NCBI GenBank assembly: GCA_963706325.1
Contig: CAVPLT010000004.1
Location: forward strand, 608,001-672,000
Source: an uncultured Nitrospiraceae bacterium
GTDB lineage: Bacteria > Nitrospirota > Nitrospiria > Nitrospirales > Nitrospiraceae
Reading direction: 5' to 3'
Length of the DNA: 64,000 nucleotides
Shown here: piece by piece, positions 21,001 through 24,000 of the stretch
Numbering within the stretch: the stretch's first letter is position 1
Layout of the letters: each line of letters begins with the position of its first letter
Made by a program: the position numbers

Positions 21001-24000
21001 GTGCCGCCGGTGCCCACCGCGGCGACGAACGCATCGACTCGTCCATCCAGCGCATCCACAATTTCCGGTCCGGTCGTTTTTCGGTGTATGTCCGGATTCG
21101 CCGGATTAGAAAACTGGTCCGGCATATAGTAGGAGGGATTTTGCGCGACGATGCTCTCCGCTTCCTTGATCGAGCCCTTCATCCCTTCCCAAGCTGCGGT
21201 CAGCACGAGCTGCGCGCCATAAGACGACAGCAGACTGGCTCGTTCCATACTCATGCTTTCCGGCATCACGAGAATGAGCTTGTACCCGCGCACCGCTGCC
21301 ACTAACGCGAGCCCAATGCCGGTATTGCCGCTGGTCGGTTCGACGATCGTTCCGCCCGGCTTCAGTTTTCCCTGCCGCTCCGCTTCATTGATCATGTTTA
21401 AGCAGATCCGGTCCTTGATGCTGCCGCCCGGATTGAACGATTCAACCTTGCCGTAAATCGTGGCGGCGCCTGGTTTGGTCAGCCGGTTGAGTCGGACTAA
21501 GGGAGTGCGGCCGATCAATTCCGTGATGTCTGCGTGAGCCTTGAGGGTCACCGGCCACCGCCCATGTAAAAAAGAAACTCCACGTGATCGCCGTCTTTCA
21601 GCTGCGTCGTGTCGAGATGCGTCCGTTCAAGCATGGTGTCATTGACCTCAACCGCAACCATTTGAGGTTCGATACTCTTGGCCTTCAAGAGATCCAGTAC
21701 GCTTCCGCCCGCGATGTCCTCAGACTTGCCATTGATCATGACCTGCATATCTGCTCCTGAGAAGGTAAGAGTCTGACAGGATACTGAAAATGTCCGCCAG
21801 CGGCGTTCTCGCATCTCTCAGATCCTCAACGTACCGCAAGGGTACGCCTCGTCCCTTCGTTCGCTACGGCCTTGCTGGACGGCCATTTTGAGCATCCTGT
21901 CAAAAGGGATTCTTGTTGCGCAGTAAGCGCAGACCCCTCGACGGTTTTTGATTCGACGCGTTTGCCTGAAACTGCTAAAGAATTTCAACACGTTAGCAAA
22001 CGGGTTCTTGATTTGTCAAGGCAACCGGCCCCGGTGAGTCGATGCGAATGGCGCTTCAACAGAGGCGGGCGTGAGGGGCTGCCGCTTTCTTGACTTTCAC
22101 CATGCCTAGCTTACAGTATGCGCCGGTCCGGAGGGTAGGGAATGTGGAAGAAAAATTTCTTGTTTCGCGCGCACGAGGCGGCGCCCCTGAAGGAGTCGGA
22201 AAACGAACTCTTTCATGACACGGAACCGGCATTAGACAGTGCCGGGCTTCAAATGGAAAAGTTTCTCTCGGTCTGGGTGCAGGGTGAAGGGGAAGATGAC
22301 AGCCCCACGATGTACACGAATTTGTATGTCCGCACGGCCACCTTGGATTTCCGCACGCGTGCCGGCTTTCTCCAGCCGTTGCAAGGCCGCACACACCAGA
22401 TTAAACAGCTTTTGACGCCTGAGCAGAAGGGATTTTTGCGTGAGTGGTTGTCGAAAACCTCCCCTCAAGCGTGGGAAGAGTCCGACGATCATTTTCGAAC
22501 TTTGTTCGACCTCGAGTGATCCGTTCGGCAGGATGTTGAAAAAGTCCGCCAGCTTTGTTCTCACGTCGCTCAGACCCTCAACGTACCCAGAGGGTACGCC
22601 TCGGCTCCTCGCTCGCTGCGGCCTCGCTGGACGGCCATTTTGAACATCCTGCTATGCATCTGGTCTTAGCCGTGGCGCTCATCAGTTTCCCATTTCGAAC
22701 CTCTCGAAATGATAATTCAACAGCCAACTAGTCCCTGCATGAGTCGTCCGCCCTCCCTTCAACGGTTCGTCTGGATCATCGTGGGGCTGATGTGCTTGGT
22801 ACAGACTCCGGTCTGTGCATCTGGCACGATTGATGTGTACTATGCCCCCGAGGACCAGCCCATCGATCATGTCGTCCGCCTCTATACCCATGCGACCCGG
22901 TACATCTATGTGTCGGTCTATGCCCTGACGGCGCCATCAGTGGTCAAGGCGCTGGTGGAGGGCAAACGCCGTGGGCTCGACATCCGCGTCATCACGGATC
23001 GGGAACGGCTGAACGATCCGAAGCAGCATAGCGCCGTGAGCGCCTTGCGACTCGCCGGCATCCCGATCAAGGTCAACCGGCATGACGGGCTGATGCACTT
23101 GAAGCAAGTGGTCATCGACGATGTGATCAATGTATCCGGCTCGGCGAATCACACCACGAGCGGCAATCGCTATAATGACGAACGGCTCGATGTCATCACC
23201 GATGCGCGCTTGACGGCGAAAGCGCGTGAGAAGTTCTTGGCCATGTGGAGTGACCGGACGCGATTTGAGTTCTGGACGGAATAGATCGAGGCGCGCATGG
23301 GCAGTACAATGATTGAAACCGATGTGGCGATTGTCGGCGCGGGCGGCGGCGGCGCGGTCCTGGCCTTGATGCTGGCCCAGCAAGGCGTGCGGTCACTGGT
23401 ATTGGAGCGGGCGGCGGGACCGCCGCAGGGATTGCGCGGAGAGCTGTTGCAGCCGAATGGCCAGCGGGTGTTGGATCGGCTTGGGCTCCTGAATACACTT
23501 CCTGCTGAGGCGACCCGAACGATCCGGCGGTTTAATTTTTGCCGCGCGGGCGGCGAACGGCTCTGCACGGTCGACTATGGCGATTTGCCGGCCCCGTACA
23601 ATCGCGCCGTGGTGACGCTTCCGAACGTGGCGCACCATGCGATTCTCGATGCGTTGGAAAAACACAATCCCGGTGCACTCTGGTACGACGCGACCTTTAC
23701 CGGACTCAGATTCGACGCGTCGCGAGTGATCGGTCTGCAGGCGGAGCGCCACGGAGAACCGGTGAACGTCTCCGCACGATTGGTCGTCGGGGCAGACGGG
23801 GCTTTCTCCAAAGTGCGGGACTGTCTCGGCCTCACCACGCAGCTGCATCGCTATTCGGAAGGGTACCTCATTGCCATCATCGACGCGCCTCACGTCACAC
23901 TGGACGAAGCTCGTTATCTGGTAGGCAGGCATCAGATCTTGGGATTGTTCCCCGCCGCCGGAGGCAAGATCTATGTGTTCTACATGATTGAGGCCGGATC

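Follow-up and report, generated by a model that had tools for sequence, protein, structure and literature searches.

The locus

The window is a 64,000-nt stretch of contig CAVPLT010000004.1 from an uncultured Nitrospiraceae bacterium (genome G000) and holds six hairpin copies in total, the focal one of which lies beside a thiS-family sulfur-carrier gene. The features of the locus and the other copies are given below; the cysK-like and moeB/thiF-like labels were read off translations and not taken from a family search.

20314..20436, minus strand: second hairpin copy in the same cysK-like/moeB-thiF-like spacer as the next feature, a few nt before the next start codon
20478..20597, minus strand: hairpin copy in the spacer that separates the cysK-like from the moeB/thiF-like gene, lying on the operon's strong strand
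21548..21748, minus strand: thiS-family sulfur-carrier gene, start codon 28 nt from the focal element
21773..21776, plus strand: left target duplication CTGA (probably drifted from CTAA), flanking the focal MITE
21777..21974, plus strand: focal MITE copy of 198 bp, made up of the hairpin and a tail whose right end has decayed, delimited by orthologous empty sites
21777..21899, minus strand: focal 123-nt hairpin, an imperfect palindrome (−53.2 kcal/mol on the minus strand versus −45.7 on the plus strand)
21796..21880, minus strand: ERIC-like core of covarying stems alternating with near-invariant purine-rich internal loops, from the covariance model
21900..21974, plus strand: 75-nt tail with a decayed right terminal repeat at its end (6 of 19 mismatches)
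21975..21978, plus strand: right target duplication CTAA, from the flank of the focal MITE and orthologous empty sites
22529..22731, plus strand: copy starting 9 nt past the stop of a 125-aa ORF; it has a tail, and its right CTAG is at 22728-22731
24554..24724, plus strand: copy with a left-end CTAA and a ~48-bp inserted apex module
42322..42443, minus strand: further hairpin copy, lying on the minus strand in the orientation of the original survey

The focal copy, at the coordinates given by the survey, follows no stop codon; it lies 28 nt upstream of the thiS start codon, so that it probably sits in the thiS 5′ leader. A promoter scan found no minus-strand promoter upstream of the focal copy, and a terminator scan limited to short loops found no intrinsic terminator (short GC stem with a free U-run) between 21700 and 22700. 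The focal hairpin folds with z-scores of −3.85 and −4.20 on its two strands; its outer stem is formed by an IS5-type left end and the internal inverted copy that pairs with it, and its U-runs fall within this stem. The 423-aa ORF upstream of the copy at 24554..24724 ends inside the terminal repeat of that copy.

A repeat family whose fold is conserved on one strand

The repeat is real and numbers more than 100 copies, as had been reported: successive rounds of an iterated nhmmer profile returned 108, 106 and 102 matches in G000 at E<1e-3, and a single copy used as a DNA query found matches in 26 of 31 relatives. The description of a ~125-nt palindrome fits the hairpin (21777-21899 at the focal locus) but not the whole unit, which is ~200 bp long. 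The strong covariation claimed for the 61 full copies (mean pairwise identity 65%) was also recovered. In an alignment of 42 of the 61, on which the structure was drawn by hand (45 were in fetched loci, three of which were dropped for length or decay), 85.4% of cells pair, compared with 34-42% in slid controls, and there are 230 double-sided changes versus 80 in shuffles.

The strand and the apex had been misread. The conserved fold lies on the strand opposite to the one previously assigned, the reverse complement folding better in 51 of the 61 full copies (−54.1 versus −47.7 kcal/mol), and a C-GNRA-G apex is present in only 15 of 54 scored apices, which rules out a GNRA cap as a family trait. 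Variable stems are interleaved with near-invariant purine-rich loops, the asymmetric loops being the most conserved columns, and at 33 mostly Watson-Crick pairs G-U occurs 84 times versus 32 for A-C. The inner ~85 nt are not derived from IS5 and carry a fold that is conserved on one strand only. The folding predictions suggest that a single-stranded form, probably RNA, is under selection, although the same strand asymmetry holds with DNA parameters too (50 of 61).

Once inserted, copies behave differently from the family as a whole. Among 17 orthologs of the focal insertion, pair-breaking substitution types outnumber pair-keeping ones 58 to 26 (five of the latter double-sided), and identity is 0.84 for the hairpin, 0.75 for the tail and 0.56 for four-fold sites in the neighbouring gene. 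Since substitutions within this insertion mostly break pairs, the covariation arose mostly among propagating lineages, with residents decaying slowly. The predominance of pair-breaking changes in resident copies would also suit a neutral fossil MITE, its covariation produced by several master copies, self-templated correction of the palindrome and gene conversion, and its likeness to ERIC (see below) by convergence; modules gained in place, which imply exchange between copies, fit such a history as well. We nevertheless consider this reading highly improbable, as palindrome correction would erase the asymmetric loops, which are the most conserved columns, and would not yield the excess of G-U over A-C.

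The hairpin as the left part of a ~200-bp MITE

The hairpin forms the left ~124 nt of a ~200-bp non-autonomous MITE that has IS5-family terminal repeats and is flanked by a duplicated 4-bp YTAR target. Genome G014 contains eight near-identical 201-bp copies with CTAG on both flanks, in which near-identity runs ~80 nt beyond the hairpin and closes in an inverted repeat followed by CTAG. Flanking 4-mers are identical left and right in 26 of 32 complete elements (CTAG 20, CTAA 4, TTAG 2); the complete elements were picked by a right-end pattern that requires YTAR, and the informative part of this count is the match of the left flank to the right. At the focal locus, 26 of 29 orthologous loci were scorable (three were left unscored): three are empty with a single CTAA (G050, G001 and G004), one is partly deleted and 22 are filled, 17 of the latter with 192-209 nt and five with an extra module. 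Two focal orthologs are clearly degraded (L260 and L273). An empty-site search using a G014 locus matched only other MITE copies.

Most copies in G000 are old, their tail and right end having been eroded. Ten of 91 copies still have a right end with at most 5 of 19 mismatches at a distance of 72-81 nt from the hairpin; as a control, 34 of 1000 random 250-nt windows contain an equally good score anywhere. Near-identical recent copies are present in G014 and absent from G000, in which the maximum pairwise identity among the 61 full copies is 89%, and G004 is almost without copies. Core-less derivatives with both ends intact also occur (L029 and L039). Two modules are found inserted in hairpins, one of ~68 bp (29 matches, 16 in profile hits and several others in decayed copies) and the other of ~48 bp at the apex (13 matches, 11 in profile hits). 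Resident copy L265 holds the ~68-bp module while its orthologs are without it, and because resident copies gain modules in place in this way, exchange among copies is indicated. Inserts within ERIC have been reported earlier.

No long autonomous version of the element was found within G000, no complete MITE was matched in plasmids, and no Rfam family matched the Nitrospira element at gathering or E-value thresholds. A phage or plasmid carrier was considered and set aside; the pattern gave 34 IMG/VR loci, ~20 of them strong by the model and many near contig ends.

An IS5-family transposase as candidate mobiliser

In G001, two inverted pairs of MITE-type ends lie ~1325 bp apart, and the one 1325-bp IS that was read encodes a 363-aa IS5 transposase (NF033581, 285 bits versus a cut-off of 140). 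At E≤1e-60, homologs of this transposase are present in 11 of the order's 121 genomes, and all 11 belong to the family of the window. YTAR and the MITE-type repeat are found at both ends in 12 of 15 IS5 loci; none of the 15 has a hairpin inside, which rules out the core as part of an IS5 end. Judging from the shared ends, the mobiliser is probably an IS5-family transposase, and we infer with high confidence that the MITE would be cut and pasted by such an enzyme acting in trans. G000 has no homolog of the IS5 transposase, and G014, the holder of the young copies, has only a broken 61%-identical piece and no intact partner.

The survey's view of a mobile hairpin family without a RAYT stands, since no Y1_Tnp match was found in G000 and the core is present at 0 of 11 Y1 loci in other genomes; mobilisation of the REP/RAYT kind is thereby ruled out. 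Like REP and REPIN sequences, the Nitrospira copies are multicopy extragenic palindromes near gene ends, but unlike those that depend on a RAYT they have a 4-bp duplication and IS5 ends. MITEPsy1 and ISPsy2 of Pseudomonas syringae are described as IS5-type elements with a 4-nt duplication of CTAG or YTAA, MITEPsy1 being mobile in vivo (PMC3189936). As described there, MITEPsy1 resembles the Nitrospira element in being gene-less, in having terminal inverted repeats in common with an IS5-family element and in its 4-nt duplication. It differs in size (100 nt versus ~200 bp), and the Nitrospira element additionally has an internal inverted left-end copy, an ERIC-like core and insertable modules; the core model found no match to MITEPsy1 on its plasmid.

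Stop-codon adjacency and copy age

The reported adjacency to stop codons was confirmed. The left end is intact in 89 copies; in 45 of these it lies within 2 nt of the end of an ORF of at least 150 codons (TAG 28, TAA 10, TGA 7), and in 51 when ORFs of at least 100 codons are counted (TAG 33, TAA 10, TGA 8). The opposite hairpin end has an ORF end in only 1 of 91 copies. Measured by junction type, the orientation bias is weak (++ 30, -- 20, +- 20, -+ 4 from a crude gene set; ++ versus --, p=0.2). The claim that the first base follows the stop was correct as to an exact, sharp peak, with the last base of the stop coinciding with the first profile column in 35 cases. The G of 'GCAGG', however, still belongs to the stop codon as its third base, and it is at CAGG that the element itself begins.

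Target availability alone is insufficient to account for this adjacency. A random YTAR is such an ORF stop in 238 of 3238 sampled sites, and stops make up 15-20% of non-coding YTAR sites (crude gene set) and 7% of all YTAR per strand, as against the 57% observed. Young copies in G014 (at least 95% identical, n=12) have a stop at the hairpin end in 3-4 cases and at the tail end in 2, and all complete G014 copies (n=26) in 7-8 and 2-3 cases respectively, whereas among the old copies of G000 a stop is found at the hairpin end in 57% and at the tail position in 8 of 91. A set of 27 complete elements gave 8 stops at the hairpin end and 12 at the tail end, in a sample that was partly drawn with the right-end pattern and is tail-biased. 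Opposite-strand stops in G000 are scattered across 0-84 nt, the pattern expected if tails erode. The rise of stop enrichment with copy age suggests sorting after insertion, the young sample being small (12). Some host-level selection is still likely, given that 57% of old copies but 3-4 of 12 young ones adjoin a stop and that the hairpin evolves more slowly than synonymous sites.

Host-level selection could be given a larger role, with the repeat as a host-domesticated RNA element whose copies are kept to process, pause or stabilise transcripts at gene boundaries and whose mobility is only a means of delivery. Orthologous positions are occupied genus-wide (22 of 26 scorable loci at the focal site), the order of identity from hairpin to tail to four-fold sites is in keeping with such a function, and one copy in G000 ends just before tmRNA. 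Yet it is the weaker-folding strand that is read after stops, and the changes seen in fixed copies mostly disrupt pairing. Some relatives lack the focal copy (3), have lost part of it (1) or carry a clearly degraded version (L260, L273), and G004 manages almost without copies. On balance we think domestication unlikely. The more specific account given by the survey, of a hairpin co-opted as a sense 3′-UTR cap, lacks support as the main explanation: the stop is the duplicated YTAR target, the strand after the stop folds more weakly, and the focal orthologs show more pair-breaking than pair-keeping substitution types (58 versus 26).

Similarity of the core to ERIC

ERIC (or IRU) sequences are 127 bp long and are placed in the Enterobacteriaceae and Vibrionaceae by a 2024 review (PMC10969869); passages of PMC3184786, PMC2267715, PMC3049150 and PMC2759123 were also drawn on. 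Built solely from G000 copies, a covariance model for the inner 85 nt returned under strict filters a single match in the whole E. coli K-12 chromosome (E 1.9e-4, E-values of such models being rough), and this match is a TA-bounded repeat that fits the published ERIC primers, i.e. an ERIC. All 13 K-12 ERICs tested, which had been found by an apex pattern, match the model at the corresponding position and on the corresponding strand. ERICs fill the first 8 of the 39 rows obtained with the Nitrospira model on K-12, and only 6 of the 13 are reached at E<0.01. In each of the 13, the strand homologous to the Nitrospira strong strand folds better. A stop lies within −5 to +2 of the end corresponding to the Nitrospira stop side in 5 of 13, and at the other end in 0 of 13.

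The likeness to ERIC needs structure to be seen, because both a sequence-only search and a genome-wide reciprocal model miss it. The sequence-only HMM scored ERIC at 4.6 bits, no better than shuffles (maximum 5.1), and an ERIC-only model used genome-wide found nothing in G000 or G147 at E≤0.1. When this model was used on 93 kb of G000 DNA, five hairpin copies took the first places among 20 rows (best E 0.007), and it also matched in G151 (E 3e-11), G148 (1e-3) and G150 (0.02). With fairly high probability, this core shares its ancestry with the cores of ERIC and of ~125-nt hairpin repeats that have unrelated ends in other phyla. What is new here is that a model of the inner core made from Nitrospira alone picks out the ERIC of E. 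coli. In the literature covered, from which subscription papers including the primary ERIC papers are absent, there is no publication on the Nitrospira repeat or on an ERIC-homologous core outside the Gammaproteobacteria, and the passages of the review literature consulted name no mobiliser or origin for ERIC.

The Nitrospira element belongs to the IS5 MITEs and would work like ERIC, but by ends or sequence it is no ERIC. Both are whole-length imperfect palindromes (~127 nt in ERIC, 123-124 nt in the Nitrospira hairpin) in which conserved loops and apical stem succeed one another in the same order and at the same distances, and in which the same strand folds better. The same side adjoins stops in both, a polarity that is common at the sequence level only. 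In contrast to ERIC, which has its own ends and a terminal TA, the Nitrospira element ends in IS5 repeats, is flanked by a YTAR duplication and carries an additional tail, and no similarity is detectable from sequence alone. The primary Yersinia paper reportedly made a statement on the orientation of stop-adjacent ERICs.

Matches to the core in other phyla

A pattern built from both the Nitrospira and ERIC families, and hence biased in its sample towards likeness, found at least 124 loci, by title 78 Nitrospira-type, 33 Enterobacterales and 13 others, the last including NC10, Desulfobacterota, Bdellovibrionaceae, Coriobacteriales and Clostridia among the matches listed. A motif that was not part of the search pattern comes 20-23 nt further on in 118 of the 125 cross-phylum matches listed, against a background of 102 in 620 windows. 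The given strand is the better-folding one in 121 of these matches, and one pair is C-G in 76 of them and swapped for G-C in 38. In 50 sequences chosen for diversity, 89.7% of cells pair and there are 224 double changes versus 83 in shuffles, although the count of pairs showing a double change is not above shuffles in this set. The negative sequence-only and genome-wide reciprocal tests with ERIC are in line with the convergence invoked for a neutral fossil; the fixed-spacing motif, which was absent from the search pattern, together with the swapped pair and the intermediates that the ERIC-only model detects (E 3e-11 and 1e-3), makes convergence hard to sustain.

A joint model, which contains one copy from each of the five genomes concerned, found 103 copies in NC10, 56 in Desulfobacteraceae, 41 in Geobacter, 15 in Bdellovibrionaceae and 4 in Coriobacteriales (one genome each), and within the phylum of the window it matched in 39 of 101 genomes and 11 of 19 families. 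At 29 loci in other phyla, stops 10-32 nt from the core are associated with the weak strand in 12 cases and with the strong strand in 3. All four cores of G151 lie in stable-RNA precursors, two ending at tRNA 5′ ends and two in the 16S leader; the core also occurs in 11 of the 41 genomes surrounding G151, in several cases at matching positions, with two adjoining a tRNA 3′ end from the weak side. That the core adjoins tRNA and 16S 5′ ends in several Coriobacteriales genomes speaks for a domesticated RNA element, as do matches of the Rfam sRNA families V_AS5 and Ysr49 to ERICs, which fall below gathering scores. For pneumococcal BOX, the one viral match to a BOX primer was not a BOX.

Outer arms are unlike in sequence between taxa, and even between copies within one Geobacter genome, while hairpin length is constant, with medians of 126.5 and 127 nt for two loop types. 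This constancy despite unrelated arms might point to a determinant of mobility at the DNA level, either a single-stranded hairpin recognised by some enzyme or an internal transposition enhancer, for which IS ends were recruited secondarily and whose polarity is set at insertion. One and the same end adjoins stops, tRNA ends and rRNA ends, and strand asymmetry persists under DNA parameters, both of which could be accommodated in this way. We consider it improbable nonetheless, given that there is no core near the 11 Y1 transposase loci or within the 15 IS5 loci, that derivatives without a core but with intact ends exist (L029, L039), and that young copies show stops at both ends (3-4 versus 2 of 12).

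In Geobacter metallireducens, 24 intergenic predicted short RNA elements with a central palindrome are described, with similar sequences in other Desulfobacterota (PMC2700814). The palindrome resembles the apical stem, a comparison based on the figure legend, and on that basis the family may have the same core. The passages of PMC2700814 consulted draw no link to ERIC or mobility for these elements, and 13 of its 19 supplementary files contained no match.

Proposed model and significance

The explanation that we favour, and believe to be probably correct, is an IS5-mobilised, YTAR-duplicating MITE that survives at stops and has an ERIC-homologous core whose single-strand fold sets the tolerated orientation. 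An IS5 transposase acting in trans would cut the gene-less ~200-bp element and paste it into YTAR. Where the YTAR holds a TAG or TAA stop, insertion would rebuild the stop and leave the protein intact, and copies at stops would survive because the duplication restores TAG or TAA. We infer, with moderate confidence, that selection on a single-stranded, probably RNA, form would then sort copies by orientation. A strong stem right after a stop would be costly through stalling, tmRNA action or decay, so that survivors abutting stops would be those read on the weak strand, and strong-strand copies would persist in leaders and spacers. It is chiefly in the master lineages, as they propagate, that the fold would be kept, and fixed copies would be under weaker constraint from the host. 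A stem-loop that lies within 15 nt of a stop is described as triggering tmRNA action and decay (PMC5009743), and for ERIC in Yersinia one orientation of a 3′-located repeat is described as destabilising the upstream mRNA via cleavage by RNase E (PMC2229807, PMC10969869).

More speculatively, and in our view with the balance of probability against it, ERIC may be one branch of an old cross-phylum family of ~125-nt single-strand hairpins, with invariant loops that some protein or nuclease common among hosts would recognise. The core would be acquired by MITEs of unrelated transposase families as it makes insertions at gene boundaries harmless, and some lineages (Coriobacteriales) would have domesticated it for processing at tRNA and 16S 5′ ends.

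As a MITE family of nitrifiers, the element is a modest addition that explains more than 100 repeats per genome and their position on stops, and it would probably explain some spurious short ORFs as well. The MITE itself is ordinary and the link to ERIC matters more: if the homology of the core is true, the long-known ERIC repeat belongs to a family that extends over several bacterial phyla. A homologous core in Nitrospirota, NC10, Desulfobacterota, Bdellovibrionota and Actinomycetota would give natural covariation with which to define the structure, and as the Nitrospira version has a nameable transposase, its mobility would be assayable. With a shared polarity rule, what ERIC is and why it persists would become directly testable.

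Stop codons and neighbouring genes

In the window, a 423-aa open reading frame enters the terminal repeat of one copy of the hairpin-bearing MITE and its stop codon falls within that repeat (24554-24568); across the copies, a stop lies at offset +12 in five. The window also contains the following gene cluster, with every gene label except thiS assigned by reading the translations:

16837-21748, minus strand: thiS, a cysK-like gene, two moeB/thiF-like genes, a threonine-synthase-like gene and a second sulfur carrier.

Copies beside stable RNA genes

Among the Coriobacteriales genomes, the core of the hairpin (its inner ~85 nt) fills the spacers of a tRNA-Tyr/Thr/Met operon and the 16S leader (L299:1359-1891; L312:1500-1740; L358-L373), its end lying at, or a few nucleotides from, the mature 5′ ends. 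In the genome under study (G000), the 5′ end of tmRNA is found ~7 nt past the end of one copy, on the better-folding strand (G000:C1:547538-548019).

Modules, deletions and spread

Resident copies have acquired a module of ~68 bp, made up of two hairpins and found at a constant position (L265, in the spacer 3′ of the cysK-like gene; L250-L252, L261), possibly as an element within an element or by gene conversion. Derivatives of the MITE that carry an internal deletion and retain both ends are as small as ~35 bp (L029, L039, L050, L024), and two of them, L039 and L050, hold the same site in two genomes. Head-to-tail runs of three or four hairpin copies occur in enterobacteria and Nitrospira alike (L180, L204; G000:C6:103184-103719). 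Complete MITE copies from two species (L220 in G001 and L001 in G014) are 98% identical, a degree of sequence similarity that hints at recent exchange between them. The complete genome G004 belongs to the same genus and has hardly any copies.

Possible relatives of the hairpin family

Pneumococcal BOX repeats often supply stop codons. The outer arm and outer loop motifs of the hairpin resemble the BOX primers listed in the primer table of PMC3049150, and BOX is a possible further relative of the family. Among ERIC repeats, those at L175 and L101 are matched by the Rfam sRNA families V_AS5 and Ysr49 with scores below gathering, and these families may therefore be ERIC transcripts.
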